From a virus: a DNA stretch of 48,525 nt. The stretch is taken from positions 1 through 48,525 of the IMG/VR virus record IMGVR_UViG_3300000976_000003; one strand, 5' to 3'. A program made the position numbers and the translations under genes. A model generated the notes under the pieces. It did not search any database, was not told where the DNA came from, and saw only the letters and a program-made list of their open reading frames with translations. Each line of letters opens with the position of its first letter. Within the stretch, counting starts at the first letter, position 1. Below, one piece after another: positions 2,296 through 48,525 of the stretch.

Positions 2296-3363
2296 TTGAA
2301 AGATTTAGATTGCTTAGATGGGCTTGTTGGGTTGACGGATATTGATTGTCCATGTATCACAGCAGACAGGCCACCAAACTACAATGAATCATCAAGTGGT
2401 TACTTTTTGACCGACATGGAATACGGTTTCCCTTTGGAAGCTGCTGTTTTTACGGTTGACGACTGCTTTAATGGAAAGAATGTTTGGGAGTTGATGCAAA
2501 AAGCCTTGGACGATGCAATCAGAGATTTCAAAGTAGACTTACGAAGTACGTTGTACAATAAGTTTGATAGTAAATATCAAGTTTTTTCGGGCGTAATCGG
2601 TAAAAAGAAGCAGAACGGGACAGAAGGCAGCGATGCCGTCGAAGTGAATCTAAAAATAACCCCTCGTGATATTCGTTCGGGTTGTTGGATTTTGAAAAAG
2701 ATTTGTCTCGGTGTTTCTTGTGATGCTACGATAGAAGTCAATATTTTTTCTAGCGAAAATCCTGATACGGCAATAGAGACTTTTACGGTCAATACGCAAG
2801 CAAATGAGTTTGTGGAACATGTATTTACTCAGCCATTGGAATTGCCGCTACACAGCGATAATTGTGATGATTTGCAGTATATATTCAAATATGAATTAAC
2901 ACCTGATTGTAAGCCTCTGAATAACAAATTGATTTGTTGCTCAGACAAGCACGAATGGAAGACTTATGTTGCTGCAAAAGGTTGTTATTTGACGCAAAAC
3001 GGCAAAGAGAAAACCTCTTCAAAGTGGGCTTATGGGTTAAGTCTCGAAGGGTATTTTTCTTGTGACAATATGGCTTGGATTTGTGAACTGGGCGAAGTCA
3101 ATGACTTTCATGTACTTGATGTAATTGCAAGACATATACAATTTCGTGCGATTTCAAAACTGATGGCAGCGGTATTGTCAAGTGGGAAAATAAACTTTTT
3201 TACGCTGTTATCCGACAAGGTGGTGATGGATAAAAAAAATAGCTTAAAAAAACACTACGACAACCATATTGCTTGGATAGTAGAGAATTTACCTGACAAT
3301 GGCATGGATTGTTTTAAATGTAAAAAAAATAAAGTAGGGAAAAAGAAATCCCTATTAGTATAA
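2296..3363 (+). CDS. Cys-rich virion-module protein; start uncertain
   Basis: The frame is open from the TTG immediately after the in-frame TAA (2293-2295) of the upstream ORF. The next in-frame ATG is at 2416. Confidence 0.5.
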   Translation: MKDLDCLDGLVGLTDIDCPCITADRPPNYNESSSGYFLTDMEYGFPLEAAVFTVDDCFNGKNVWELMQKALDDAIRDFKVDLRSTLYNKFDSKYQVFSGVIGKKKQNGTEGSDAVEVNLKITPRDIRSGCWILKKICLGVSCDATIEVNIFSSENPDTAIETFTVNTQANEFVEHVFTQPLELPLHSDNCDDLQYIFKYELTPDCKPLNNKLICCSDKHEWKTYVAAKGCYLTQNGKEKTSSKWAYGLSLEGYFSCDNMAWICELGEVNDFHVLDVIARHIQFRAISKLMAAVLSSGKINFFTLLSDKVVMDKKNSLKKHYDNHIAWIVENLPDNGMDCFKCKKNKVGKKKSLLV

Positions 3364-6280: not shown

Positions 6281-7074
6281 TGAAATACACAAATATCATA
6301 TTATTTTTCTTCTTGTTTGCCTTGAATGTTCAAGGTCAAATCGAATTTGAAGAAAATATTAAATGCTGCGGTAAGTTGGAATGCGCAGAATTGGAAGGTC
6401 TGGCTGCTTGTATCAATGATTTAATCATACATCCACCATCTACAGACGAACAAACATTGACTAACAACGATGTGAACGGTGTTACTGAGTCGATTACGAT
6501 TAGCAATGGGAATACTATTCCAATCAATCACCCTGACGGGGTAATGATAAGTGAATGTGTTGGAAGATTCGTATACAATAACAATAGAACAGGATGGCTC
6601 TTTCCTTGGACTCAGATATATAATAATGTCGGTAATGTAGCAACAGTATTAGGTGATTGGGAACAGGTATCACAAACTTATATTACACCTGCTTGTGCAA
6701 GCGATGTAAGCGCGACTGCTAATCTTGGAAATCATTTAATTTATTCGAGACGAACGAGGTCATACTATTGGATAGATGTTCGATTGTTAGTGAATGGTGC
6801 ACCCGTGCAAACATGGACCTATAACAATTATCTATATCTAGACAAAAGAGACGATACTAATCCTGATGTGATTACACCACAATTGTACGAAATATATAAC
6901 CTCGGAGTTGCCCAGCTATATCGGCAAAACGTTCCCGCAAATGCTGTCGTAACAGTAGAAGCAAGACGGCGATATAGAACAGTTGGCTCACAGCCATCTA
7001 ACTATTTTAGGACAATTGGCGGACTGCGTTCAAACGTTTCGTTTGTGGCGCATAACCGCACAAACATAGAATAA
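6280..7074 (+). CDS. protein with Sec-type signal peptide (264 aa)
   Basis: I prefer ATG 6280, which overlaps the upstream TAA as TAATG. The N-terminus is MKYTNIILFFFLFALNVQGQ. Confidence 0.6.
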   Translation: MKYTNIILFFFLFALNVQGQIEFEENIKCCGKLECAELEGLAACINDLIIHPPSTDEQTLTNNDVNGVTESITISNGNTIPINHPDGVMISECVGRFVYNNNRTGWLFPWTQIYNNVGNVATVLGDWEQVSQTYITPACASDVSATANLGNHLIYSRRTRSYYWIDVRLLVNGAPVQTWTYNNYLYLDKRDDTNPDVITPQLYEIYNLGVAQLYRQNVPANAVVTVEARRRYRTVGSQPSNYFRTIGGLRSNVSFVAHNRTNIE

Positions 7075-7511
7075 TGAGATTGATATTACTTGTTTTCATC
7101 CTGCTATCAAGCTGTCAAGCTTATAGCCAATTTTACCTCCTTCAGGAAGAGTTAGGTTATCAAACAGGCTATGCCGAGTTTGATTATCAGATTCCCATGG
7201 GAGCGGAATTATTTGACACTCAAGAAGAGCTGGACAAAGCGATAAAAAAAGCTGACAAAAAGGTCATAGAAGCTTACGAAGCTTTTGAAAAGGAATTTTT
7301 GAATGTTATTGACGACGATATAGATGTCTTAGAACCCCTTATTAATCAATTGTATTTAAAAGGAACTTTCGCCGAGGTGAAAAAAAGAACGATTCGACAA
7401 CACAAAAAAGCACTTGATATACTAAAAATAAACTATTCGCAAGCCAAGCGTGAAGATGATTATATAAAATTGATTTTTGAAAAATTAATCCAACTCGGCT
7501 TCCGAGAATAA
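7074..7511 (+). CDS. putative lipoprotein (145 aa)
   Basis: The N-terminus MRLILLVFILLSSCQ contains a lipobox-like LSSC. The start is a TAATG overlap. Confidence 0.55.
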   Translation: MRLILLVFILLSSCQAYSQFYLLQEELGYQTGYAEFDYQIPMGAELFDTQEELDKAIKKADKKVIEAYEAFEKEFLNVIDDDIDVLEPLINQLYLKGTFAEVKKRTIRQHKKALDILKINYSQAKREDDYIKLIFEKLIQLGFRE

Positions 7512-7524
7512 AACACCATATACA

Positions 7525-8151
7525 ATGTGGCCTTTTGATTTATTAACAAATAAAACCGATTCAACAATGAACCCTAATTCAAATTCAAATTCAAATTCAG
7601 AAAATAAAACAAACTCAAATACTCCTGAAGGAACTGTAAAAACAATCGAGCAATTAGAAGGCTTGCTTGGTGATGAAAGTAAATTGACTAGAAAAGACGT
7701 TGCATATCACATGCTAGGCGATTTAGACATTAGCGATAAAAAAGTGCTTGCTTGTACTATTATAGAAGAATGTAAGGAGGAAGCAAGACTTGAAGTCAAA
7801 TCAAAATTGGATGATTTATCTGAGGAAAGAGGTGAGTTCTTAGGTCAATTGGAGGTTTGTAAAGATGAAAAAGCGGTTTTGGTTGCAGAAGTAGAAGAAG
7901 AATTTGCGGATGATGCTGGTTGGGATAAAATCAAAGGATGGAAACAAGAAATCCTTGATTTACAAGACAAAATCGACCGATGTACCAAAAAACAAAAGGC
8001 TAGACTTAAAATTAGAATTACTCAGGAAACATCAAATAAAGATAAAACTATCGCTTCTATTCAAAATAACATTGATAGAATTGATAAGTTGTCTGCTAGC
8101 TTGGAGTTGTCATATCAAGCTCCTAAAAGCGGAATTCCTTGTAAATGTTAA
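7525..8151 (+). CDS. coiled-coil protein with NSNSNSNS low-complexity N-terminus (208 aa)
   Basis: ORF in the late operon. The composition was read from the translation. Confidence 0.5.
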   Translation: MWPFDLLTNKTDSTMNPNSNSNSNSENKTNSNTPEGTVKTIEQLEGLLGDESKLTRKDVAYHMLGDLDISDKKVLACTIIEECKEEARLEVKSKLDDLSEERGEFLGQLEVCKDEKAVLVAEVEEEFADDAGWDKIKGWKQEILDLQDKIDRCTKKQKARLKIRITQETSNKDKTIASIQNNIDRIDKLSASLELSYQAPKSGIPCKC

Positions 8152-8210
8152 CAATGGCAAAAGCGTAAAATATAGTTGCTCTAATAAGAATAAAATTTAA
8201 ATAGTACAAG

Positions 8211-10475
8211 ATGAAAAATAAATTAATAGTACTTATACTTTCAATGTTGTTTCTGTCAAGCGGGATGTTTGCACAAATAATACCACCAAACCCATCTTTG
8301 GGAGGTAATCCTCCAAATGGTAATTATCCACGTATAGGCTATCATAATAAAGATTTCTTCGGTTTGCTCCGTGAAGCAATCGCCAAAGAAGAAGGTACCA
8401 GGTATACGGTTTTAAAGCTATTACCAGTTGATGTAGATGACCAAAGATATTATGATTTGGATCACGGCAAACAAGTGGATTTCAGAAATAGTGCAACCTT
8501 AAAAGCATTATTTGATTTTGACCCGCTTGATTCATTAGAATTAGCTATTCGTATCGACAAAGAATTGTTATTACAAGGGCTCGGTATCGACCCTGAGAAT
8601 GGAGATTGCGAAGATTGTAGTATTATAAATGAGTTAATCACCGATGCGTATCTTTTCGGAGACTCCTTATATATAGAAGAAGGTGGAAAGGAATGGATTG
8701 TTAATCTCAGTGACCTTATACCTGATTGTGACGACTGTGATCCCTTGAATGAGATTGATGTAATGGAAATTGACACAATGCAACAAGGCAAGATATGTTA
8801 TCGGTTGGTCGGTGCAGATTGGTTATGTTTTAATGTACCTGAAAGCACAGACTATACAGTCACAGCACAAATCAACACAATTATAGTAGACGGTCAAGAA
8901 TTACAAGAATGTTGTTTATATCAATTAGGTGTTAAAAGTAATCCAATAAAATGCGATACATTGTCTTGTGCGAACACATTCCGAGTTACACATAATCAGA
9001 TAACTATTCCACAAACTACACCAGTAATTGGTAGCGTGATTTTATCAGATACATTATTGAAAATAGCTAATTATTTTTTCTGTGATAAATTAATTTACAG
9101 GGATACTCTGCCAGAATGGAGAGAAACAACTTGTAACGGTGATTTATATTGTACATCGACTTATACCACTTTGTCTAGTTTTTCAGATCCCCAATGTTTT
9201 TTTATTAGCGAAGGGGATGTACTTACATTCTATGGGGATATCAATATTTTTGACAGCGATGGCTGCCAATCAGCGAATGACACTAATAGCGACATCATAT
9301 CTTTTAATGGTAATCCTGTTAATAGCGGAGGTGGTGTGTTAGATGTAGCTAATGGCACTTTTGCACCTAATTCTGCTAATTGGTTTTTAAATCTTGAAAA
9401 ACCATTAGGGTTTGACTTAATAATCACAAAGCTTACAGGGGGGGTAAATATGGATTTTTATGTTGAGCAATTAGATGGTGATATAGGTAAGGATGTTGTT
9501 TGTATTCCTTCTTGTAATCCTGCTACCACAAAAGCATCTGTTCTAAGCAACACAAATCCAATAACAGGAGAATCAACCATAGGTGTAAATCTGATAAAAA
9601 ACGGCGCAGCTGTAGCTCTAGGAGAATGTGGTACTATAACGGTTACGGATGGTATAACTGATTATTTAGTTATGGATAAAACAGTAGGTGAACAGTTACA
9701 AAATTTCAACAATTACAATGCTACTTATTTTCCAAACGGAACAGAGGTTTTTCAAAACGGAAGTTCTTTTACTTTCAATAAAATCGCTTTTGGAATAGAT
9801 TTCGGGTTAACGGGGGATAATGCAAAAACACTATGTCTTAGATATGGTACAGGAGGGAGTTGTAGCGACAATATGAATCCTTTATGCCCTATACCTTCAG
9901 TTTTAAATGAAAAAGCTTGTTTAGAACCTATAGTATTCACTGGGGCTGATAATCAGGGTTACTTTAAAATTGGAGAGGACGCAACTTACAATTATATCGC
10001 TCCTTTCTCAGATGATTGGGGGTGTCCTAATACGTCTCCTTTAGTCAATATTAATAATGCTACATTAGGGAATGTTGTAAGAGTTCCTAAATCTATAAGC
10101 GTTGCAGCGTGGAATAATGCACCTGTTGATGTTGCTATGGCTAATGCAATAATTACAAACCCAATCCCAACAAATACAGATGTTATAATAAAGCAAATTA
10201 ATTACACCAATGGATTAGTTAAGTATCACAATGTACTTTCTAATGATTTCAATTTTAATGGGGATTTAGCTGTTAAGATTGATGGAATAATATTAAGTAA
10301 TGTTGAAGGAGTTCCATCGAACACTATTTTTAGTTGTAATGCAATTGTTGATGTAAATGCTCAAAACAGAAATTGGTTTTATACGGGAGGTGTTTATGCT
10401 GTTGAAAGCATCTGGTTTGAAACATTGGATGGTGAATTATTTGAAATGGATTTTTTGATACAATTTATAGTTTAA
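8211..10475 (+). CDS. large protein with Sec-type signal peptide, fibre/adhesin-like (754 aa)
   Basis: The N-terminus is MKNKLIVLILSMLFLSSGMFAQ. The protein is Cys-rich and is the last gene before the terminator that precedes the lysis cassette. Confidence 0.6.
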   Translation: MKNKLIVLILSMLFLSSGMFAQIIPPNPSLGGNPPNGNYPRIGYHNKDFFGLLREAIAKEEGTRYTVLKLLPVDVDDQRYYDLDHGKQVDFRNSATLKALFDFDPLDSLELAIRIDKELLLQGLGIDPENGDCEDCSIINELITDAYLFGDSLYIEEGGKEWIVNLSDLIPDCDDCDPLNEIDVMEIDTMQQGKICYRLVGADWLCFNVPESTDYTVTAQINTIIVDGQELQECCLYQLGVKSNPIKCDTLSCANTFRVTHNQITIPQTTPVIGSVILSDTLLKIANYFFCDKLIYRDTLPEWRETTCNGDLYCTSTYTTLSSFSDPQCFFISEGDVLTFYGDINIFDSDGCQSANDTNSDIISFNGNPVNSGGGVLDVANGTFAPNSANWFLNLEKPLGFDLIITKLTGGVNMDFYVEQLDGDIGKDVVCIPSCNPATTKASVLSNTNPITGESTIGVNLIKNGAAVALGECGTITVTDGITDYLVMDKTVGEQLQNFNNYNATYFPNGTEVFQNGSSFTFNKIAFGIDFGLTGDNAKTLCLRYGTGGSCSDNMNPLCPIPSVLNEKACLEPIVFTGADNQGYFKIGEDATYNYIAPFSDDWGCPNTSPLVNINNATLGNVVRVPKSISVAAWNNAPVDVAMANAIITNPIPTNTDVIIKQINYTNGLVKYHNVLSNDFNFNGDLAVKIDGIILSNVEGVPSNTIFSCNAIVDVNAQNRNWFYTGGVYAVESIWFETLDGELFEMDFLIQFIV

Positions 10476-18996: not shown

Positions 18997-19067
18997 TGCA
19001 GGATAGAGAAACGGTATCTTGCTGGACTCATGATCCAGAGTTGGAGGTTCGAATCCTCCTCCTGCGA
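18997..19067 (+). tRNA. tRNA with CAT anticodon (elongator Met or Ile2-type)
   Basis: I folded a cloverleaf by hand: acceptor TGCAGGA/TCCTGCG (U1:G72), D stem GAGA/TCTT, anticodon stem CTGGA/TCCAG with loop CTCATGA, and T arm GGAGG-TTCGAAT-CCTCC. Confidence 0.8.
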
Positions 19068-19178
19068 CGAAGCCCTGAAATAAATTAGCAGATAATTAAC
19101 ACGGTGGGAGACCAAACAGGGCTGCTAGACACTGGAAGCGTTTCAGACTCCAAAGCAAGGGTTGCAAACCTTGTGATT

Positions 19179-19249
19179 TTGTTGGCTAGTTTAATGGCAG
19201 AACGCATCGGCTCTACGATGAAGATAAGGTTCGATTCCTTACCAACACC
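19179..19249 (+). other. tRNA-like element with defects (possible pseudo-tRNA or tRNA-derived att fragment)
   Basis: It has a canonical T arm TAAGG-TTCGATT-CCTTA, a 6/7-bp acceptor, and a D arm GTTT-AATGGCA-GAAC. However, the anticodon stem CATCG/CGATG encloses only 6 nt (GCTCTA), and 3 nt link the acceptor to the D stem. Confidence 0.35.
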
Positions 19250-19446
19250 AAAACAACCAATCGAAGAAGAGGGTTTGGTTTTATCTCCTTTGTAGTCGGT
19301 ATTGTGGATTGACACGTGTAAACAATGCTTTCATTTTAGCTGAATGGACAAAATGATAAAATTGACAAATTCTTATTGATTTATTCAAATAAAGATGGAC
19401 AAGGCCCTCACGTTTGGTTGAAAGAATAGACTCTAGTTTTTGTTGG

Positions 19447-19497
19447 CGCTCCCTTATCCTATCGAGAGAGTATTTGAAAGGTAAGGTGAGCGTTTTT
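19447..19497 (+). terminator. rho-independent terminator after the tRNA region
   Basis: CGCTC-CCTTA ... TAAGG-T-GAGCG forms a long bulged hairpin followed by TTTTT. Confidence 0.6.
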
Positions 19498-19522
19498 CTA
19501 TCAACCAAAAAAAATATTCAAA

Positions 19523-19744
19523 ATGGCAATTCCAAAAGACATAACTATTGATTCAGAAAATGGTAATCAAGTAGCTTCATTTAATTTCAATGAAGGGAAA
19601 GAGGTCGCAAGAGAAAAAGGCTTGGTTCAAACAAGCTCTTATAGTCAAGTATACAATGGAACTGGTTTTATTATCTCTTGTGGTGATGTGATGATGAAGG
19701 TTTCGGAAACCGATTACCCTGAAATTCAGAGAAGAACTATTTAA
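19523..19744 (+). CDS. hypothetical protein (73 aa)
   Basis: ATG ORF. Confidence 0.5.
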   Translation: MAIPKDITIDSENGNQVASFNFNEGKEVAREKGLVQTSSYSQVYNGTGFIISCGDVMMKVSETDYPEIQRRTI

Positions 19745-19862
19745 TCAGAGAAACTGATTGTCTTGATTGTGAATGAAAGTGTTGGCTTCTAACCCACATT
19801 GTCACCTTCAGTAAGTGACTAGTTCGCAGTCAGGCTTTTTAATCCACAGAACAGTATCAACC

Positions 19863-19970
19863 ATGGGAATACTACCAATAGTGATTTTCATAGCACTTGC
19901 CTACTACGGGCATCGACAGGAGCAAAAGAAAATTGAACGTCAGGAGAAAATTAAGAACAAGTACAGATGA
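19863..19970 (+). CDS. possible micro-ORF (35 aa) with one hydrophobic helix
   Basis: MGILPIVIFIALAYYGHRQEQKKIERQEKIKNKYR. Its stop overlaps the next ATG (ATGA). Confidence 0.3.
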   Translation: MGILPIVIFIALAYYGHRQEQKKIERQEKIKNKYR

Positions 19971-20134
19971 CTACCCAATGTCAAGTAACAGGTGAGCCTA
20001 TCCAAATTGAATGGCTCACTGATAGCGAAATCACGGAATATTGGTATCAAAAGTGGACACGAAAGAAATCCACTCGACCGAATATTCCGATTTATATCAA
20101 CATTAATTATCAAAAATTTGATTGCTATGCCTAA
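19967..20134 (+). CDS. possible small protein (55 aa)
   Basis: MTTQCQVTGEPIQIEWLTDSEITEYWYQKW... This is an alternative to the GTG-started ORF 19992..20270, which lies in another frame. Confidence 0.3.
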   Translation: MTTQCQVTGEPIQIEWLTDSEITEYWYQKWTRKKSTRPNIPIYININYQKFDCYA

Positions 20135-20270
20135 AAAGAAATCTAAAGAACAAATCCGTCAGGAAGAAATTAAAAAAGTCCAAAAACAAGGGGCGTTTTT
20201 TATGTCCCAATTAAGTTATGACGTACCAAAAGTCACATTTCCTAAATTGTCAAAACCTAAGCAAAAATGA
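20127..20270 (+). CDS. possible small basic protein (47 aa; ATG-started part of ORF 19992..20270)
   Basis: MPKKKSKEQIRQEEIKK... Its stop overlaps ATG 20267 (ATGA). Confidence 0.3.
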   Translation: MPKKKSKEQIRQEEIKKVQKQGAFFMSQLSYDVPKVTFPKLSKPKQK

Positions 20271-20974
20271 GTGAAGTATTGATATACGACCAGCAAGGTT
20301 ATTTAATTGACCCGCATCGACCAGATCCAACACAATATTTTGTTGCTGTGATTTGCTTGATTTGTTTTTTATTCTTGGCTTTAAAGCCAGTAGATATAAA
20401 AAACACGACCTCTTTATTGGAAACCTCTACTGTATCAAATTGTACTGATACAGTTGCCAATAAACCAAGCAGTATCAAACCTAAAACAATCTTTGGTTTG
20501 CCGATTGAAAAAGCAGAAAAATTCATACAAAGGTTTAAAGATGTGGCTATTTATGAGCAACAAAAATATGGTATACCTGCAAGCATAAAACTAGCTCAGG
20601 GTTTACTCGAATCCAAATCAGGAACATCCTTGTTAGCAATTCAAAATAATAATTATTTCGGAGTTAAATGTTTTTCTAAAACATGCAAAAAGGGGCATTG
20701 TACCAATTTGTCAGATGATAGTCATAAGGATTTTTTTAAGAAATATGATTCTGCATGGCTTTCTTTCCGTGATCATTCAAAATTACTACAGAAAGAAAGG
20801 TATAAGGATTTGTATAAAAGCAAATCATACACTGCTTGGGCTTTTGGTTTGCGAAAAGCTGGGTATGCAACTGATGAAAAATACCATCGAAAGATTATCA
20901 AGATAATAGAAGATTTAGAATTGTATCAATACGATAAACACTATTCAGAAAAGAATCCATCTGTTATCAGATGA
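20267..20974 (+). CDS. membrane-anchored peptidoglycan hydrolase, glucosaminidase/GH73 (FlgJ-like) domain
   Basis: N-terminal hydrophobic helix YFVAVICLICFLFLAL. Motifs AQGLLESKSG, NNNYFGVK and AGYATDEKY. Confidence 0.7.
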   Translation: MSEVLIYDQQGYLIDPHRPDPTQYFVAVICLICFLFLALKPVDIKNTTSLLETSTVSNCTDTVANKPSSIKPKTIFGLPIEKAEKFIQRFKDVAIYEQQKYGIPASIKLAQGLLESKSGTSLLAIQNNNYFGVKCFSKTCKKGHCTNLSDDSHKDFFKKYDSAWLSFRDHSKLLQKERYKDLYKSKSYTAWAFGLRKAGYATDEKYHRKIIKIIEDLELYQYDKHYSEKNPSVIR

Positions 20975-20999
20975 TTGCTTTTTGAATTATTAGTTGGTT

Positions 21000-21024
21000 C
21001 CGTCCTACTTAGGTGGGGCGGTTT
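21000..21024 (+). terminator. hairpin CCGTCC...GGGGCGG followed by TTT
   Basis: A 6-bp GC-rich stem with one G:T pair and a 10-nt loop. Confidence 0.35.
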
Positions 21025-21026
21025 AA

Positions 21027-21097
21027 GAAGGATTGTCTGAGTGGCTAGGAAGCGGTCTGCAAAACCGTCTACAAGGGTTCGAGTCCCTTATCCTTCT
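21027..21097 (+). tRNA. tRNA-Cys (GCA)
   Basis: Acceptor GAAGGAT/ATCCTTC, anticodon stem GCGGT/ACCGT with loop CTGCAAA, and T arm AAGGG-TTCGAGT-CCCTT. Confidence 0.8.
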
Positions 21098-21117
21098 CAT
21101 AGTGTTTCATAGTGTTT

Positions 21118-26196: not shown

Positions 26197-26481
26197 TGAA
26201 ATACATCGCTAAGTTTTCCAATTTCAGGGGGCGTATTTGTGGTGTGTCATACCTTAGGATTTGTAAATCCTTGGTGCTAAAAATGTATGTTCTTGTCTTG
26301 AAAGATAATTTATTTTACAAAACCCCAATTATTAAAAGTTGCATTGCAACGAAGAGAAACAAAGCAAAAAAGCTATATAATTTCAATTGATAAACCAATC
26401 ACCCCGCCGCCAAACCGGAACGCTAACGACCACAGCGGTTGCACACGCTACGATTTGGAGGTGGGTTTGATAAACATAATT

Positions 26482-28047
26482 ATGCCGAGAAAAAATTCAT
26501 ATTTAACAGCAACTGACCAATTTTGTGGAGCTGGAGGAAGTAGTTCAGGAGCAAAAGCAGCTGGTGTCGAAGTTAAGATGGCTCTGAATCATTGGGAATT
26601 AGCTATTGAAACTCATAATACCAATCATCCAGAGGTCGACCATGATTGTACAGATGTACAAGCATGTGACCCAAGGCGATATCCGTCAACTGACATTTTG
26701 ATAACTTCACCTGAGTGCACCAACCATTCATTGGCAAAAGGAAGAAAGCGAAAATTCCAAAACCAATATGAGATGTTCGGTAAAGTGGATATTAAGCCTG
26801 AAGAAGAAAGAAGTCGAGCGACAATGTGGGATGTACCAAGGTTTGCTGAATTTCACGATTACAATATCATTATTGTTGAAAATGTTGTTGATGCAAGGTA
26901 CTGGCGGTTATGGGATGCTTGGTTGATGGCAATGCACTCGTTAGGATACAAACATAAATGTTGCTATCTGAATTCTATGTTTTTTCATCCATGTCCTCAG
27001 TCCAGAGATCGCATGTATGTGGTTTTTTGGAAAAAGGGAAATCCCTCTCCAAATTTAGATTATACTCCAACTGCACATTGCCCTAAATGTGCAAAAGACA
27101 TCCAAGCGGTACAAGTTTGGAAAAAGCCTGATAAAAAATGGGGAAAGTATAAGCAACAATATTTATATCGTTGTCCGAATGATGGAGAAATAGTAACCCC
27201 TTACTATTATGCAGCTTTCAATTGTATAGACTGGACCATGCCGGGTCAAAGAATTGGAGACCGCAAAAAACCGTTAGCAGAAAAGACTATTGCACGGATT
27301 GAGTATGGTCTTGAAAAATATGGAGATGAACCAATAGTAATCACTAATCGATATACTAGTGGTATGAATTGCCGTGTCAAACCATCGATATCAAATCCTT
27401 TACCTACACAACCAGGAGACCAATCACATTCTATTCTAATGCCGTTTTTTGTCAATAGCGAACACGCACAGAAAGAACGTAGCCGTTCAGGAGCGGATAC
27501 CCTTTGGACACAAACAACTGCTCAAACAACAGGTTTTGTGCTTCCATACATTTTATGCGGAAACTACACACCTGGTTGGGTTAAAAATATGGCTCAGCCT
27601 ATAGGAGTAGTTACTACATCTGACCATCATTCTCTTTTGAGTGTACCTCTAGTAATAGAAAATTATGGGAAAAGCATGTCAAAACCTTCAAGTGCACCCA
27701 TTGGAGCAATCACTACGAGTACTGTGCATGGTGTTTTGGCAACAGAAAAAGTAAGTGCTTTTCTTTCATATTATTATTCTGCATCCAAAGGAGCAAGTGG
27801 AATTAAAGCAGCAATCAATACAATTTGTGCAAGAGAAGGGGTGAGTTTGGTAACTTCTAAGAATTTGAAAATAGAGGATTGTCATTATCGAATGTTGAAA
27901 CCTCACGAAATACAGGCAGCAATGGCTTTTGCGGATGATTACATTGTAATAGGGAATAGTAGACAGAAAACGAAACAATTAGGCAATGCAGTAACTCCTC
28001 CAGTAATGGAATGGTTGGTAAAGCAATGTGTTGAAACTCTAAACTAA
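26482..28047 (+). CDS. DNA (cytosine-5) methyltransferase (521 aa from ATG 26482)
   Basis: Motif I DQFCGAGGSS, motif IV SPECTNHS (catalytic Cys), motif VI IVENV and motif X QLGNAVTPPV. Confidence 0.85.
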   Translation: MPRKNSYLTATDQFCGAGGSSSGAKAAGVEVKMALNHWELAIETHNTNHPEVDHDCTDVQACDPRRYPSTDILITSPECTNHSLAKGRKRKFQNQYEMFGKVDIKPEEERSRATMWDVPRFAEFHDYNIIIVENVVDARYWRLWDAWLMAMHSLGYKHKCCYLNSMFFHPCPQSRDRMYVVFWKKGNPSPNLDYTPTAHCPKCAKDIQAVQVWKKPDKKWGKYKQQYLYRCPNDGEIVTPYYYAAFNCIDWTMPGQRIGDRKKPLAEKTIARIEYGLEKYGDEPIVITNRYTSGMNCRVKPSISNPLPTQPGDQSHSILMPFFVNSEHAQKERSRSGADTLWTQTTAQTTGFVLPYILCGNYTPGWVKNMAQPIGVVTTSDHHSLLSVPLVIENYGKSMSKPSSAPIGAITTSTVHGVLATEKVSAFLSYYYSASKGASGIKAAINTICAREGVSLVTSKNLKIEDCHYRMLKPHEIQAAMAFADDYIVIGNSRQKTKQLGNAVTPPVMEWLVKQCVETLN

Positions 28048-28950: not shown

Positions 28951-29158
28951 AATGCTTATTTTTACAATATTGTTGTGTTCTTGTTTTGTCAACCAACTTT
29001 CAAAATCATCTAAAAACCTGTATATCAACACTTTAAATAAAATACCGTGCACTTTCGATTTAATGTTTAGATACTTTTTGTTTGAACTAATTAGCTTTAA
29101 ACGGTATACTTTAACTTATTTCGCATCATTTCAACCTACATCATTCTATAAAAGTAGT

Positions 29159-29200
29159 TATATTTGTTTTGTTAAAACATTTTGTAAACAAAACAAATAT
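29159..29200 (+). promoter_or_regulatory. TATATTTG box (29159..29166) overlapping a 13-bp near-perfect inverted repeat ATTTGTTTTGTTA/TAAACAAAACAAAT upstream of int
   Basis: Read directly. It sits in a 250-nt AT-rich non-coding stretch (28951..29206) that is also a candidate attP. Confidence 0.35.
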
Positions 29201-29206
29201 GCTACT

Positions 29207-30412
29207 ATGAAGATTTCTACATACTTTGTGCTGAACGACAGGCATAAAAGTAAAAGTGAGCTTTGCTCCATCTCTCTACGAATCGGTTATAACCGAAAAT
29301 ACGCTTTCCAAGATACTGGGATTGAAATCCTAGCCAATCAATTTGATTCAAAAACTGCCAAAAAAGGACAATGGAGTGTTGTAAAAAAACATCCTAGACA
29401 AGACATGTATAATCAACAGCTCAAAGCTTTGATGGATAAGGTTTTTGAAATTTCTCACGAACTAAAAATGTCTGATGAATCCTTCACTGCTAGAACTATA
29501 AAATCAAGAATCAAAACCGTTGGTGAAAAAGCTGTTAGTGTTTTTTATAGAATCCTTAAGGAGGATCGTAGTATTAAGATCAATACAAAAAAAGCTATCT
29601 CATCCATGATAACTCGTCTATCAGAGTTTTCACCAGACATACTGATTAATGAAATAGATTATCAATTTGCAAAACGTTTCGAGTCATGGCTTCTCTCGCG
29701 CCCTAGTCGATATAATGCTACGTTAAGCATTAATACAACAAATAAATATCTACGAGACCTATCACGAATGCTTACAAGGTCAATTAAGTATGAAATCATT
29801 GATAATAATCGCCTTATTGGTTATGATTTCATCAAAGAACCTCGTCAACCAAAGAAAACAAAACACCTAACATTTGATGATTTACAAACAATTGAGCAAG
29901 TTGATTTGTCAGAATTTTTTACTGGACAAAAGTTACAATCTGTAGAATATACAAAAGATGCCTTTTTATTTGCTTGCTATACTGGTCTTAGGATTTCAGA
30001 TTTACTTACCGTTGCTCCAAATCATTATAAAGATAGAATCTTAGTGGTTGACACTAAAAAAGGCGAAGAAACTGTACTCTTACCAATCAAAGACCTCTTC
30101 AAAGGAAAACCCTATAAATTATTCAAATCTTATTCCCAATTAAGAATAGGCTCAAAGCCATTGTTTGGTGATAAAAAACGTGTTACGCATCAATCTAATA
30201 TAGGAATCATTCGTGCCGTTTTATTTCCAAAGAGAAAAGTTAGTTTCCATACGGCTCGGCATACTTTTGATACTCTTCTTAGTGAATTAGGAGTTGACCC
30301 ACATACCAGACAACGATTATTGGGGCATAAGAAAGTTGAAACTACTATGAATGTTTATGATCATCATGGGTGGTCGAAAGAACACAATGAGATTAAGCAA
30401 AAATTTGGGTAA
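29207..30412 (+). CDS. int: tyrosine recombinase / phage integrase (401 aa from ATG 29207)
   Basis: YTGLRISDL (Arg), HTARHTF (His-x-x-Arg) and LLGHKKVETTMNVYDH (His...Tyr). The N-terminus MKISTYFVLN...SISLRI is typical of Bacteroidota integrases. Confidence 0.85.
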   Translation: MKISTYFVLNDRHKSKSELCSISLRIGYNRKYAFQDTGIEILANQFDSKTAKKGQWSVVKKHPRQDMYNQQLKALMDKVFEISHELKMSDESFTARTIKSRIKTVGEKAVSVFYRILKEDRSIKINTKKAISSMITRLSEFSPDILINEIDYQFAKRFESWLLSRPSRYNATLSINTTNKYLRDLSRMLTRSIKYEIIDNNRLIGYDFIKEPRQPKKTKHLTFDDLQTIEQVDLSEFFTGQKLQSVEYTKDAFLFACYTGLRISDLLTVAPNHYKDRILVVDTKKGEETVLLPIKDLFKGKPYKLFKSYSQLRIGSKPLFGDKKRVTHQSNIGIIRAVLFPKRKVSFHTARHTFDTLLSELGVDPHTRQRLLGHKKVETTMNVYDHHGWSKEHNEIKQKFG

Positions 30413-30505
30413 CGCTGTATGTATGTGGCGTTGCCAATTGCGGTTGGTTTGTGGGATTGGGTCGTTATTGGCAATGAACATATACGACTTGTTACAGGTC
30501 AGACC
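30407..30505 (+). repeat. imperfect-palindrome intergenic element, copy A
   Basis: GGGTAACGC...TTGCCAAT(28 nt)ATTGGCAA...GTTACAGGTCAGACC. Confidence 0.7.
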
Positions 30506-30521
30506 AAGATACTGCTTTGAT

Positions 30522-30602
30522 AACGAGAATACGAGTGGCGAACTAGCAGCCACGTAAAACTTTGCTAGTGTGATTTTAAAAACTTATTGAAAACCCTTTG
30601 CT
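30522..30602 (+). repeat. duplicated upstream leader, copy 1 (about 85% identical to 31210..31287)
   Basis: AACGAGAATACGAGTGGCGAACTAGCAGCCACGT...GCTAGTGTGATTTTAAAAACTTATTGAAAACC, ending at the ATG. Confidence 0.8.
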
Positions 30603-31094
30603 ATGAGCAAAATACCAATCATTGATTCAAACGATGAAGATTTTAAAGAAAAGTTTGACTTTAATTTATGGTCAACGCAGTCTAATTCTGATTACAGAAA
30701 TGACAAGGAACGCCCTTATAATGGGCAGCCACATACAAGTAATGGTATTCGTGGCAAGCAGGTGGTTTCTGGTATTACGATGAGAGATTTAAGAGACTGT
30801 CTAATACAAGCGTTTCTTGTTTCTTCTAGTGATGAAGAATTACAAAAAAAAGTCTTTGAAATTTCAGACGACCCCGATATAGGCAAAGGAACAAAATATG
30901 CAGCAAAAGGTAATTGGCGACCACAAGATGTCTATGAGATAGATTTTGACGATATTGACCCAATTGCTGTAGCTCAAAACTTAACTTGTTTCGTGGAGCA
31001 TTATATGGGTATATTCCCGAATCTTAATTTAAAAGGCATTCCTTCGACCAAAGAACTTATAGAGGACTTGACTAATTCAGAACCTAATCAATAG
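30603..31094 (+). CDS. hypothetical protein (163 aa), cassette 1
   Basis: ATG ORF flanked by element copies A and B. Confidence 0.6.
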   Translation: MSKIPIIDSNDEDFKEKFDFNLWSTQSNSDYRNDKERPYNGQPHTSNGIRGKQVVSGITMRDLRDCLIQAFLVSSSDEELQKKVFEISDDPDIGKGTKYAAKGNWRPQDVYEIDFDDIDPIAVAQNLTCFVEHYMGIFPNLNLKGIPSTKELIEDLTNSEPNQ

Positions 31095-31113
31095 AGTGAA
31101 AAAATATTTTATA

Positions 31114-31194
31114 GGTTGCCTGTAACGCCCTTGGCTAAACGGCGGTTGCCCGCATAGGGCAAATGACCGTTTTAGCTGTTGTTACAGGCATACC
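31114..31194 (+). repeat. imperfect-palindrome intergenic element, copy B
   Basis: GGTTGCCTGTAACGC...GTTACAGGCATACC. Three stacked stems: GCCTGTAAC/GTTACAGGC, GCTAAACGG/CCGTTTTAGC and TTGCCC/GGGCAA. Confidence 0.8.
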
Positions 31195-31209
31195 ACGATG
31201 TGTGCCGAA

Positions 31210-31287
31210 AACGAGGATACGAGTGGCGAACTAGCACCACGTTAAATATGCTAGTACGATTTTAAAAACTTATTTAAAACCTTTTTT
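31210..31287 (+). repeat. duplicated upstream leader, copy 2
   Basis: AACGAGGATACGAGTGGCGAACTAGCACCACGT...GCTAGTACGATTTTAAAAACTTATTTAAAACC, ending at the ATG. Confidence 0.8.
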
Positions 31288-31893
31288 ATGACTAGAACTG
31301 AACACGAATTTCAGATTTTAAAAGATAATGTAAGTGACCCAATAATAGCTCCATTTGAAAAGGAGATTACTGATTTAGTGCATAAATTTATGAAATCAGG
31401 ACAAAGCGGTGGTTCTGCTCCAATGACCGCTTCTGCTATAAGTCAGGCTGTTGAAAATCTATGCAACCATAAACCTTTATACGGAATAACGGGCGAAGAT
31501 GCTGAATGGTCAAACAGTATAAGCAGGGACGACACGTATCAAAATAATAGGTTGTCATCTGTTTTTAAAAAAGGTGTCAAAGGGAAAGCCTACTACCTGA
31601 ATGCTATTGTTTTTTGTGGTCAAAATGGAAGCCAATTCACATCAAACGGAAGCGTAAAAGATTCAAAAGGTAATAACGTACGAAGTAGCCACTATATTAA
31701 GTCCTTGCCATTTAAGCCCAAAACATTCTACATTGATGTTATTGAAACAGAATGGCATAAAGACAAAGAAACAGGAGAATTGACAAAGCAAGAAGGCGGT
31801 GGCTGGTGGACATCTGTTTTAAAAGATGACTCTCAGTTAGATGAAGTTTGGGAATATTACGAAAGATTTGATTCGGCAGAGTCGGTCGAGTAG
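31288..31893 (+). CDS. hypothetical protein (201 aa), cassette 2
   Basis: ATG ORF flanked by element copies B and C. Confidence 0.6.
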   Translation: MTRTEHEFQILKDNVSDPIIAPFEKEITDLVHKFMKSGQSGGSAPMTASAISQAVENLCNHKPLYGITGEDAEWSNSISRDDTYQNNRLSSVFKKGVKGKAYYLNAIVFCGQNGSQFTSNGSVKDSKGNNVRSSHYIKSLPFKPKTFYIDVIETEWHKDKETGELTKQEGGGWWTSVLKDDSQLDEVWEYYERFDSAESVE

Positions 31894-31904
31894 AAACCTT
31901 TTTC

Positions 31905-32013
31905 GGTTGCCTGTAACGCTCTAAATAGCTGCATACTGCGAGTGCGTGTTGGCTTTGAGTGATTTGGGTAGTTACTCGTAGTTGACAGCTATGAGTTTGT
32001 TATACATCATACC
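31905..32013 (+). repeat. imperfect-palindrome intergenic element, copy C (more diverged)
   Basis: GGTTGCCTGTAACGC...ATAGCTG(54 nt)CAGCTAT...GTTATACATCATACC. Confidence 0.65.
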
Positions 32014-32067
32014 AAAATTCCGCTCGAAAAACGTCAAGCGACGATAGGAGCGATAAAACTTAAAATT

Positions 32068-32469
32068 ATGACTGACAATAAAGAATTAAAGACCTCAGAG
32101 CTTTTTTGGCTGTTTGTTGTTAATATTGCAACAGTTGGCTTGTGGTTTGTCCATCCAAGCTTGGTTTTTATGACTCAAATTGCATTTTTTGTTATAGGAA
32201 TTTCTAACGACCAAAAAAAATGGAGGATTGGGTTTTTTATGCCCTTTTTTTTATGTGTTTTGATATATTCAATATTTGAATCAATCAATGATTTTTTAGA
32301 TGATACAGACTTTTCAAAGATGTATTCTAAACGATTCAATAAATCAGAATTTCAAGTTGTCCAAAAATACCTTAAACACAAAGCTGGGTATTATGATAAC
32401 AAGGATAAATCAAAAAGTGAAAAGATACTTATAGTTTTAGATATAATTGAGAAAGAAGATATTGATTAA
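32068..32469 (+). CDS. small integral membrane protein (133 aa, about 3 hydrophobic helices), cassette 3
   Basis: Hydrophobic segments LFWLFVVNIATVGLWFV, FMTQIAFFVIGI and FFMPFFLCVLIYSIF. Confidence 0.6.
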   Translation: MTDNKELKTSELFWLFVVNIATVGLWFVHPSLVFMTQIAFFVIGISNDQKKWRIGFFMPFFLCVLIYSIFESINDFLDDTDFSKMYSKRFNKSEFQVVQKYLKHKAGYYDNKDKSKSEKILIVLDIIEKEDID

Positions 32470-32504
32470 CGACGAATACAATGGAGCAGAAAACGATTTT
32501 TAAA

Positions 32505-32602
32505 GGTTGTGTATAACAAGTGTGTAAATGCACTTTCAGAAAAGCCTATTTGGAAAAGTCAAATATGCTTTTGTATTGGCAATCAATAGGTTGAGTCATA
32601 CC
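32505..32602 (+). repeat. imperfect-palindrome intergenic element, copy D (diverged)
   Basis: GGTTGTGTATAAC...GAAAAGCCTATTTGG/TCAAATATGCTTTTG...GGTTGAGTCATACC. Confidence 0.55.
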
Positions 32603-32690: not shown

Positions 32691-32698
32691 TGGTATTC

Positions 32699-32750
32699 AA
32701 AAAAGCAATTATCTGTAACGGAACAACCGTTTACATTTAATTGCTTTTTT
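32699..32750 (+). terminator. strong hairpin terminator immediately downstream of the candidate late promoter
   Basis: AAAAAAGCAATTA...TAATTGCTTTTTT forms a 13-bp outer stem, with an inner stem GTAACGG/CCGTTTAC. Confidence 0.65.
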
Positions 32751-32796
32751 GTTGAATCCAAGTAACCTCAAAGGTTTTTGGAAACGAAATCAATAG

Positions 32797-32838
32797 AAGG
32801 GTTTGTTTTGTACACGGGTACAAGACAAACCCTTTTCT
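32797..32838 (+). terminator. 17-bp hairpin AAGGGTTTGTTTTGTAC-ACGG-GTACAAGACAAACCCTT plus TTCT, 14 nt before ATG 32852
   Basis: The arms are complementary with one T:G pair. Confidence 0.5.
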
Positions 32839-32851
32839 AGTTTATAGAGGA

Positions 32852-33520
32852 ATGAGAAAAAACGGAGAAAATAAACCTTGTGATAATTGTGGTGTCAGTA
32901 TTTATTTACCCAAATCAAGGTTAAAAAGAGCAAAAAACACATTTTGTTCAAAAGATTGCTACGATAAGCATCAATCAAGAAATAAGATAGTTTTTGATTG
33001 TAAAATTTGTGGTGAAAAATTTAGCCTCTCCAAAGGCGAAGTAGAGAAGGCGACAAAGAGGGGACATAAAAAACTATACTGTTCTTTAGTCTGTCGAAAT
33101 AATGATAAGCATCGAATGACGGAAAAGGCGCAGGCGATGAATGAAGTCCAAAGGAATAAAACAGGCCCTAATAAACTAGAATTGGCTGGACGGCATTGGT
33201 TGACCGAATCACTTGGATTTATCAAAGATGTTGATTTCAAAGAACAAGTATTAATGTTTGATAAATTCTGTGTCGATGTGGCTTTTGTGAATATCAAACT
33301 TATAGTCCAGTTCGATGGAGAATATTGGCATCAAAAGCCAAAAAGAAAGAAGTTAGACGAAAGTCAAGACGCATATTTGAATAAATGTGGCTATACGGTG
33401 TTTCGGGTGACAGACAAGGAAATGTATTGTAAGGATGGATATTTGAACGAAGAGATAATATTGGGTTTTACGAGTAGATATTCAGAATGCGTTCTTCAAA
33501 ACGTAATGTTAAGTAAATAA
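32852..33520 (+). CDS. Zn-finger protein with C-terminal DUF559/Vsr-like endonuclease-type domain (possible homing or packaging-associated nuclease)
   Basis: Two CxxC...CxxC clusters. The C-terminus CVDVAFVNIKLIVQFDGEYWH...GYTVFRV resembles DUF559-type nucleases. The gene lies directly upstream of terS. Confidence 0.45.
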   Translation: MRKNGENKPCDNCGVSIYLPKSRLKRAKNTFCSKDCYDKHQSRNKIVFDCKICGEKFSLSKGEVEKATKRGHKKLYCSLVCRNNDKHRMTEKAQAMNEVQRNKTGPNKLELAGRHWLTESLGFIKDVDFKEQVLMFDKFCVDVAFVNIKLIVQFDGEYWHQKPKRKKLDESQDAYLNKCGYTVFRVTDKEMYCKDGYLNEEIILGFTSRYSECVLQNVMLSK

Positions 33521-48272: not shown

Positions 48273-48525
48273 ATGACAAAGGAAGAATATCTTGATAAAT
48301 TTAAATCTCAATTAAAAGCAGGTGGTGTGCTATTTAAGCACAAAACACGTAAGGACGCTCAAGGCGATTCTTTACATGCTGTATTTCCAAACTCAAAATT
48401 GGCTTTAGCTGCTGCTAAAGAAGGGGGGTATACAAAAACCTCTGTTGAGCCAACAGCTAAAAAACTTGAAGGCGTCAAAGCTGCCGCTGAAAAAGCTGCC
48501 GCTGAAAAAGCTGCCGCTGAAAAAG
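48273..48525 (+). CDS. N-terminal part of a small Ala/Lys-rich protein; continues at 2..100
   Basis: From ATG 48273 the ORF is still open at the window end and reads ...KLEGVKAAAEKAAAEKAAAEK. Confidence 0.6.
   Translation, partial: MTKEEYLDKFKSQLKAGGVLFKHKTRKDAQGDSLHAVFPNSKLALAAAKEGGYTKTSVEPTAKKLEGVKAAAEKAAAEKAAAEK
48480..48525 (+). repeat. 15-nt tandem repeat GCTGCCGCTGAAAAA x3, copy at window end
   Basis: Read directly. It overlaps nt 1..41 of the window. Confidence 0.9.

Follow-up and report, generated by a model that had tools for sequence, protein, structure and literature searches.

What does a temperate phage gain by setting off single genes with long hairpins? The question is raised by the virus record IMGVR_UViG_3300000976_000003 (48,525 nt; the window, that is, the whole stretch of DNA that was analyzed), in which a region with three small co-oriented genes, g1, g2, and g3, also contains four related imperfect palindromes of 80 to 110 nt, one after the tyrosine integrase gene int and one after each of the next three open reading frames (ORFs). 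A preliminary description of this DNA had likened the palindromes to the attC sites of integrons, had proposed that they bound exchangeable cassettes next to their recombinase, and had named diverged terminators as the alternative. Our answer, given with a little less than even confidence, is that the elements are attC-type hairpin junctions of the phage-borne class and that three single-gene cassettes make up an array extending from int to terS. The array would then carry self-promoted accessory genes, including one of the Tad3 family, a part of the reading that we put forward just as tentatively. The kind of system, phage-borne attC sites in clusters of attC sites lacking integron integrases (CALINs), is already known, and this array is a new case.

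The four copies, A to D (Table 1), lie where the preliminary description had placed them and carry the boxes that it gave, the 3' boxes reading exactly as it wrote them; no further copy occurs elsewhere in the window. The 15-nt 5' box GGTTGCCTGTAACGC is exact in B (31114) and C (31905) and is absent from the rest of the window at up to three mismatches, and a gapped pattern made of the two boxes matches B and C, with 0 matches in 100 shuffles. In A, the 5' box is shortened to GGGTAACGC and overlaps the TAA stop codon of int (30410-30412). The elements start 12 to 36 nt past a stop codon, except for A, which starts on one, and A, B, and C have 44 to 54% G+C, compared to 35.7% for the genome.

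Table 1. Features of the region downstream of the integrase gene, with positions in the window
Feature	Position	Strand	Description
int	29207..30412	+	tyrosine integrase; Arm-DNA-bind_5, SAM_5, and catalytic domains; Pfam and PHROG matches
Element A	30407..30505	+	long hairpin; 5' box reduced to GGGTAAC; 3' box TTGTTACAGGTCAGACC; interior homologous to C
Leader 1	30506..30602	+	promoter-like, conserved with leader 2; ATACGAGTGGCGAACTAGCA, inverted repeat ACTAGCA..TGCTAGT, GATTTTAAAAACTTATT
g1	30603..31094	+	163-aa acidic protein; widespread phage accessory family
Element B	31114..31194	+	attC-type hairpin; R-like boxes CTGTAAC and GTTACAG
Leader 2	31195..31287	+	homologous to leader 1; holds GCTAGTACGATTTTAAAAAC
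g2	31288..31893	+	Tad3 family, Pfam PF25185 (E 1.5e-21, residues 6-119)
Element C	31905..32013	+	long hairpin; 5' box identical to B; 3' box TTGTTATACATCATACC complements the D 5' box, not its own
Leader 3	32014..32067	+	shortened version of leaders 1 and 2 (by eye)
g3	32068..32469	+	133-aa hydrophobic ORFan, 28% G+C
Element D	32505..32602	+	degenerate, AT-rich, weakly folding; 5' box GGTTGTGTATAAC, partner of the C 3' box
Terminators	32698-32751 and 32795-32836	+	two ordinary terminator-like hairpins with T-runs; close the array

Folded as RNA, B gives a strong hairpin (-43.7 kcal/mol, z -5.35) and A a clear one (z -2.7). A mismatched basal stem weakens C overall (z -1.6), and D folds poorly (z -1.4). 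D is best called a degenerate copy, the right half of which retains TATTGGCAATCAA (12 of 13 positions in common with A) and GTCATACC. In B, an L-like stem pairs GGCTAAACGG with CCGTT(T)TAGC, leaving an extrahelical T on the 3' arm, and the stem is prolonged by an outer extension, GGTTG / CATACC. The plus strand, which is the gene-sense strand, folds better than the minus strand in all four elements with RNA parameters (for A, -34.0 versus -19.4 kcal/mol; for C, -33.1 versus -24.4 kcal/mol), and DNA parameters give the same direction; G.U pairs number 25 in total on the sense strand versus 5 on the antisense strand. The interiors of A and C are homologous (58 of 82 positions), their arms are of equal length, and their G/T-rich apical loops are about 81% identical. 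By a register-based count, 23 positions are paired in both; 11 of these changed on both sides with pairing kept and one changed on one side only, so that the hairpin itself has been maintained. No Rfam 15 match overlaps A to D at the gathering score or at E values up to 10.

The boxes pair across the genes. When all 5' boxes of A to D were compared with all 3' boxes in a pairing matrix, the 3' box of C, GTTATACATCATACC, was found to complement the 5' box of D on the other side of g3 (score 12, -15.2 kcal/mol), compared to a score of 5 and -7.2 kcal/mol with its own 5' box; the 5' box of D also scores 5 with its own 3' box. Summed, pairing from neighbor to neighbor reaches 33.5 versus 21.5 within elements. 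The three substitutions that set the D 5' box apart from those of B and C are exactly compensated in the C 3' box, for which we estimate a probability by chance of 1e-4 to 4e-3. Furthermore, the identical 5' boxes of B and C are matched by the 3' boxes of both A and B, and the outermost half-sites (the A 5' box and the D 3' box) are the odd ones out. The box pairs co-vary across the gene and not across the hairpin. By analogy, such cross-gene complementarity corresponds to the junction signature of integron cassettes, which arises in integron arrays because strand exchange inside the box leaves the outer bases with the neighboring cassette. A second case comes from the marine phage PH101, in which ATATAAC of element e3 matches GTTATAT of the preceding element, e2, at 7 of 7 positions and does not match its own GTTATCC.

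This co-variation bears on the simplest explanation of the elements, namely, that they are plain diverged terminators or mRNA-stabilizing hairpins, spread by local duplication and with no role in gene exchange. Their placement shortly after stop codons (on the stop codon in the case of A) and their long, stable stems are what one would expect of terminators, and attC sites are themselves thought to be weak terminators (PMC9892861). However, the hairpins are not canonical terminators because they lack T-runs: the 3' boxes of A to D are followed by ACGATG, AAGATA, AAAATT, and TAGTCG, respectively, and in no case was the whole element called as a terminator, whereas the other terminators of this phage, such as those that close the array, consist of short G+C stems with T-runs. 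In addition, contigs of the type of phage P12002L (see below) have a terminator-like T-run ahead of the hairpin, and neither the cross-gene co-variation nor the flank exchange at boxes described below is explained by termination. This alternative, which the preliminary description had retained, is weakened by these results, and we consider it improbable.

The comparison with known attC sites was made with covariance models. Qi et al. (2023; PMC9892861) described CALINs in phages, including the marine phages PH101 and P12002L, and showed that IntI1 recombined five of the six sites tested, among them sites of PH101 and TJE1. Our first model, R1, was built from the bottom strands of five published attC sites, four of them phage-borne and one from aadA7, with none from the window; the sequences were taken from the supplementary primer table of that study, in which four of the five were recombined by IntI1 (PMC9892861). 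A broader model, R2, was built from 20 outside sequences. Both models are proxies for the attC models of IntegronFinder and HattCI, and their E values, obtained with a short calibration, are rough. In the whole window and on both strands, the best match to R1 is B at full length (21.7 bits, E 0.0097), with less than 4.3 bits on its minus strand; the alignment spans the AAC/GTT box and the second stem and puts an unpaired base of the 3' arm at the bulge position of the model. Across 790 kb of DNA from other phages, R1 matched nothing but P12002L_attC1 (21.1 bits), a published site kept out of the model. R2 likewise ranks B first (33.1 bits, E 1.4e-4, plus strand only), the next match having 12 bits. 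In direct comparisons, B resembles PH101_attC2 (z 6.7) and P12002L_attC1 (z 6.9), and 0 of 300 shuffles were as good. As judged from its sequence, B belongs to the published family of phage-borne attC hairpins. In the definition of attC, an R box, RYYYAAC / GTTRRRY, forms the base of an imperfect hairpin of 57 to 141 nt (PMC5027507); A, B, and C are 81 to 109 nt long.

The family of B extends well beyond these phages. A pattern for the core common to B, P12002L, and PH101, run on IMG/VR, retrieved 21 loci, all on AT-rich contigs and including PH101 and P12002L, with R1 scores of 21 to 34 bits; further hairpins of the same class with other interiors were also found. A near-invariant 55-nt hairpin, TAACGSTTAGGCTAAACGGTCGTTTTAATGCCGTTTTAGCCATTGTTA, recurs in about 19 AT-rich contigs (for example, at 11202-11255 of L143 and 1406-1459 of L154). 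Its outer box bases and flanks vary among the 21 loci, and TTAGTACGGATTTAAAAAC-like sequence, similar to the leaders that follow A and B, often comes next. In three pairs of copies (L143/L154, L147/L148, and PH101 e1/e3), the core is identical and the 70 nt downstream are 90 to 100% identical, whereas the 60 nt upstream are unrelated (22 to 30%), and the change falls at xTAAC. The preliminary description had suggested looking for the same element beside different genes, with junctions at the boxes, and this is what the 21 loci and the three pairs display for the family of B. We conclude from these alignments that B-type hairpins sit at points of flank exchange in other phages. In PH101, the published attC2 and a 55-nt leader are duplicated before two different genes (2598-2715 and 4001-4114), as is an 80-nt segment upstream of attC1 (3125-3205 and 4530-4610); the published sites are thus embedded in larger intergenic modules that are repeated.

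A near-identical 55-nt hairpin in many unrelated contexts, together with the presence of terminal inverted repeats, could suggest selfish palindromes inserted between genes in the manner of miniature inverted-repeat transposable elements (MITEs) or repetitive extragenic palindromic (REP) sequences. We regard this as very improbable, given that no target-site duplications abut the boxes (as judged by eye), that no transposase is present, and that the copies in the window have unrelated or strongly diverged interiors.

Several observations weigh against the attC-type reading. First, A, C, and D were undetected by R1 or R2 (about 5 bits or less), A and C having the boxes of B but not its inner stem. 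The resemblance to attC and the idea of cassette junctions proposed in the preliminary description are supported by the detection of B, the cross-gene boxes, and the flank exchange, but the models do not extend this support to the other three copies. Second, two of the four degenerate positions of the R box disagree in CTGTAAC / GTTACAG, the AAC/GTT core being present in A, B, and C, and the helix of B runs about 6 bp past its R-like box, through the outer extension, unlike that of attC. Third, the strand asymmetry is as in attC, with the extrahelical T in B and the better-folding plus strand, but its polarity relative to the genes is reversed. In aadA7 (class 1 integron, plasmid CP082444.1), the coding strand reads ...TAAC-AATTC...CAAGC-GTTA... 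and the bottom strand reads TAAC-GCTTG...AATT-GTTA; the gene-sense strand of A, B, and C is bottom-strand-like (TAAC-GC...TT-GTTA). The coding strand of PH101 and P12002L is likewise bottom-strand-like, and their sites, like those in the window, have a conserved leader after them; TJE1 follows the classical arrangement. Fourth, classical integron cassettes are promoterless, whereas those described here have leaders of 55 to 98 nt, two of them homologous. Fifth, the nearest published relative of B, P12002L_attC1, was the site that failed to recombine with IntI1 in the study of Qi et al. (PMC9892861). Sixth, the window contains no integron integrase by either a search with the NCBIfam model TIGR02249 or a tblastn search with IntI1, and the 21 related loci have neither a tyrosine recombinase nor an integron integrase in the stretches fetched. 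Seventh, the homologues of g1 and g2 in other phages (L072-L107, L126, and L127) are not flanked by such elements. Finally, exact-pattern scans of viral, metagenome, and genome collections found no second copy of the box type proper to this phage. In the same vein, an exact 15-mer scan of IMG/VR gave 67 matches, all due to chance; two gapped box patterns gave nothing in metagenome, genome, and viral collections, or chance matches in coding genes (e.g., a carbamoyl-phosphate-synthase-like ORF); a search with a 20-mer of the leader gave none; and BLAST of element B against phages and plasmids at E values up to 10 gave chance matches only, one of which, in a Vibrio replicon, is coding sequence.

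The repeated unit also exceeds the palindrome. A and B are identical at 93 of 112 positions from TTGTTAC to the next ATG, and their homology begins exactly at TTGTTAC, which constitutes a clean breakpoint inside the window. B and D have about 28 nt in common upstream of the 5' box, and GAWAACGA occurs 9 to 14 nt past the 3' box in all four elements. Copy pairs accordingly differ in which segments they have in common: the leader in A/B, the interior in A/C, the 5' box in B/C, and the upstream sequence in B/D. The GCTAGTACGATTTTAAAAAC of leader 2 resembles, by eye, a motif found after the hairpin in other viral contigs. From their sequences, the leaders are presumed to be promoters; sigma-70-type sites were no more frequent than in shuffled sequence (22 found versus 24.8 expected), and no Bacteroidota -7 box was convincing by eye.

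These features would also fit regulatory cassettes, in which a sense-strand hairpin, acting as an insulator, a processing site, or a 3'-end stabilizer, is coupled to a promoter leader, homologous recombination shuffles the units, and the likeness to attC is convergent. This reading, the main alternative, we consider less likely than not, and the same applies to its corollary that the repeats are needed to express individually regulated accessory genes (morons). The precedent is provided by the promoter-early stem-loops (PeSLs) of T4-type phages (Arbiol et al. 2010, PMC2839356; Comeau et al. 2014, PMC4122927), which are documented in this role, mini-circles included. Like the repeats described here, PeSLs are composites of stem-loop and promoter that flank nonessential single ORFs in a plastic region and serve as sites of exchange; a mini-circle intermediate has been postulated in their case. 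The PeSL-like reading accounts for a repeat that reaches into the leader common to A and B, for the duplication of hairpin plus 55-nt leader in PH101, for the TAGTACGGATTTAAAAAC-like motif that follows the hairpin in several other contigs and is found in leaders 1 and 2 (by eye), and for a core that travels with the downstream gene. The different segments common to different copy pairs form a mosaic typical of recombining repeats, and the much better folding of the sense strand, evident in A and C and in the G.U counts, is what a transcribed hairpin would display. The PeSL-like reading is also in keeping with the failure of P12002L_attC1 as an IntI1 substrate and with the lack of a recombinase accompanying the hairpin family. 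One trait of PeSLs, the occurrence of the same repeat at indel or replacement junctions between related phages, is seen for the B-type family in the three pairs above.

However, co-variation between a 3' box and the 5' box beyond the next gene is not predicted by homologous recombination, and PeSLs, which recombine by homology, show none. Nor does homologous recombination predict the strand-specific detection of B by models from IntI1-validated sites. PeSLs are short, possess a clear sigma-70 promoter, and function as real terminators, whereas the hairpins in the window are 80 to 110 nt long and lack T-runs, and no sigma-70-type or recognizable Bacteroidota promoter could be assigned in the leaders. 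The strand bias itself is less telling when the arms are considered alone, where the excess of G.T over A.C (12 versus 5) is not significant (p 0.14). Long imperfect sense-strand hairpins between co-oriented genes are also known from the RNase III processing sites of the T7 early genes and from lambda sib, downstream of int. The likeness extends to the element directly after the integrase gene, but these precedents leave the cross-gene box complementarity and the flank exchange unexplained. The attC-type reading, for its part, explains why B belongs to the phage-borne family and why the strands are asymmetric, and it accounts for boxes that co-vary across a gene, as seen twice, and for the aberrant half-sites at the two ends of the array. 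The attC-array and regulatory-module readings are compatible: the elements may be recombination sites by origin and transcript insulators in use, and the sense-transcribed hairpins probably also insulate or stabilize individual transcripts.

Under the attC-type reading, each cassette would most likely start with the C of one AAC box and end with the AA of the following box, classical cleavage falling between A and C of the bottom-strand AAC (PMC5027507). The borders would then be 30412|13, 31125|26, 31916|17, and 32516|17, giving cassettes of 713, 791, and 600 bp, and the left border would coincide with the int stop codon. Each cassette would contain a hairpin and its promoter-like leader, followed by a single gene and the outer portion of the box that comes next. 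By analogy with integron chemistry, one strand, here the gene-sense strand, would fold, and its paired AAC/GTT box would be cut and exchanged by an integron-type tyrosine recombinase supplied in trans; cassettes could be released as circles and integrate again at a different box. Three parts of this scheme are inferred: the strand-exchange mechanism, the enzyme responsible, and the equivalence of A and C to B.

Set against a classical integron (intI1-attI-aadA7-attC), the array has in common with it single-gene cassettes of 600 to 790 bp between AAC/GTT imperfect palindromes, outer box bases that belong to the neighboring cassette, and a tyrosine recombinase gene at one end. It differs in that the recombinase, which is not IntI, is encoded in the same orientation as the cassettes (intI is usually divergent), that neither attI nor the cassette promoter Pc was recognized, that the bottom-strand-like strand is the coding strand, that the cassettes appear to carry their own leaders, and that RYYYAAC/GTTRRRY is matched only at AAC/GTT plus two of the four degenerate positions. 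The other close comparison is with the CALINs of PH101, P12002L, and TJE1. B has TAACGCC..TTGGCTAAACGG...CCGTTTTAGC..TTGTTA in common with PH101_attC2 and P12002L_attC1; the sites lie 19 to 26 nt after a stop codon and 30 to 100 nt before the next ATG; PH101 and P12002L have the same polarity relative to the genes; and no integron integrase is present. In contrast to these CALINs, the array described here abuts a phage integrase in a temperate phage, its stems have the outer extension, it includes two long variants (about 100 nt) that were missed by the models, and its cargo includes a Tad3-family gene and not DNA methyltransferases.

If the attC-type reading is true, a temperate phage stores accessory and anti-defense genes as integron-type cassettes, which would provide a concrete route for the rapid exchange of counter-defense genes. 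If the PeSL-like alternative is right, the locus is an ordinary, tidy case of repeated regulatory modules around morons. In about 20 uncultivated viral contigs, points of flank exchange are occupied by a single near-invariant 55-nt hairpin, and the CALIN and PeSL-type literatures are brought onto the same objects, the choice between them being experimentally decidable. A bolder version, which we consider unlikely, is that phages of marine, AT-rich hosts, probably Bacteroidota, keep an integron-like system of their own, with attC polarity on the coding strand and units of a hairpin and a promoter-bearing leader that move Tad3 and other anti-defense or accessory genes from phage to phage, operated by a host IntI or by an unrecognized recombinase, possibly int. 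Such a system would be a phage-side mirror of integrons as libraries of defense genes.

The role that the preliminary description suggested for the neighboring recombinase is not supported. The IntDOT/phage-type N-terminus of the integrase and its co-orientation with the cassettes, both noted there, agree with the results: the protein has arm-binding, SAM-like, and catalytic domains in the normal arm-binding architecture of integrases of phages and of integrative and conjugative elements (ICEs), and the gene lies on the plus strand like g1 to g3. It scores 30.5 bits against the integron-integrase model TIGR02249, for which the cutoff is 265, with 44 residues matched, and although it is the sole match of IntI1 in the window, that match covers 39 aa of the catalytic motif. 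An integron-like system of a new type, operated by this integrase and including shufflon- or inverton-like inversion of genes flanked by inverted repeats, might be suspected from the start of the array exactly at the int stop codon (TAA|C), inside the first AAC box, from the inverted boxes with a matching 5- to 6-nt center that flank each gene, and from the presence of Bacteroides DNA invertases among the distant relatives of int. Such a system is nevertheless improbable to our mind. The four contexts read for the five closest relatives of int (about 50% identity) contain no such elements, and the relatives P0004, P0005, and P0006 (L068-L071) have a different small terminator in their place; no integrase lies near the hairpins in other carriers of the family, among them the lytic phages PH101 and P12002L; and palindromic interiors would be purposeless in an inversion switch. 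No attI-like site was recognized beside int. The int/attP end of temperate phages commonly gathers accessory genes, so the adjacency of int is best seen as a coincidence, and int most likely only integrates the phage. The noncoding stretch upstream of int (28951-29206) contains an inverted repeat with perfect 14-bp arms (29160-29173 / 29187-29200), along with TTGTTGTGTT-like repeats, of which similar ones are present upstream of the int homologue in L068 (8054-8303); it is probably an attP or arm-site region or an int control region.

Other candidates were rejected. An origin or pac site does not fit copies that are separated by ORFs, and an inverton was dismissed because the interiors are palindromic, so that flipping would change little. 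A retron or tRNA-like element was also discarded, there being no reverse transcriptase and the ARAGORN tRNAs lying only at 19 to 21 kb.

As to the cargo, g1 has 323 homologues, mostly phage-borne, with no match in Pfam, PHROG, or NCBIfam, and its AlphaFold2 model (pLDDT 70.7) had no fold match in PDB. The 841 homologues of g2 all contain PF25185, and the C-terminal 80 residues of g2, outside the Pfam model, are conserved in the family. Tad3 proteins inhibit Thoeris via ThsB binding (PMC13402655), which makes g2, on the basis of its family, a candidate inhibitor of type I Thoeris. The product of g3 is hydrophobic, with three transmembrane segments as judged by eye; it matched no Pfam, PHROG, or NCBIfam family, and a search of 1.84 billion representatives returned no homologue other than itself.

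The homologues of these genes lie in diverse surroundings. In L105, a Tad3 homologue with 66% identity lies inside the structural gene block (6001-6690) and is followed by an ordinary terminator; that contig carries a related terS/terL/portal module, so the same gene occupies different sites in related phages. In L072, a dense array of tRNA genes of about 2.5 kb (6100-8560) follows the g1 homologue directly on the opposite strand. In L126, which has a g1 homologue 71% identical to that of the window, the last codons plus 18 nt are tandemly duplicated (661-726, 33 bp x 2), and TTGTGCGGTGAATAAAT (1820-1836) recurs before another small gene. These junction repeats differ in kind from those of the window and have no significant hairpins; the small genes of L126 form another cassette-like run.

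The phage genome is AT-rich (48.5 kb, 35.7% G+C), and positions 1-41 and 48485-48525 repeat each other over 41 nt. Because of this end overlap, the assembly is probably that of a complete circular or terminally redundant phage genome. A DNA search of GenBank phages with the region gave no match, the terminase has distant relatives only, and no close relatives were found for a presence/absence comparison of these cassettes. It is a new temperate phage, the hosts of which may be marine, AT-rich Bacteroidota. The array region adjoins int on one side and, on the other, genes for a DUF559/Vsr-like endonuclease, terS, and terL (from 32852 onward). The first of these (32852-33520), directly before terS, encodes N-terminal zinc ribbons and a DUF559/Vsr-like nuclease domain and could be a homing-type or packaging-associated endonuclease. 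Three tRNA genes lie at 18997-21098: those for Met and Cys and a third that has an irregular anticodon loop and was left unnamed by ARAGORN. A large C-5 cytosine DNA methyltransferase (26344-28047), encoded upstream of int at a distance of a few genes, is likely another anti-restriction function in the same end of the genome as the int array.

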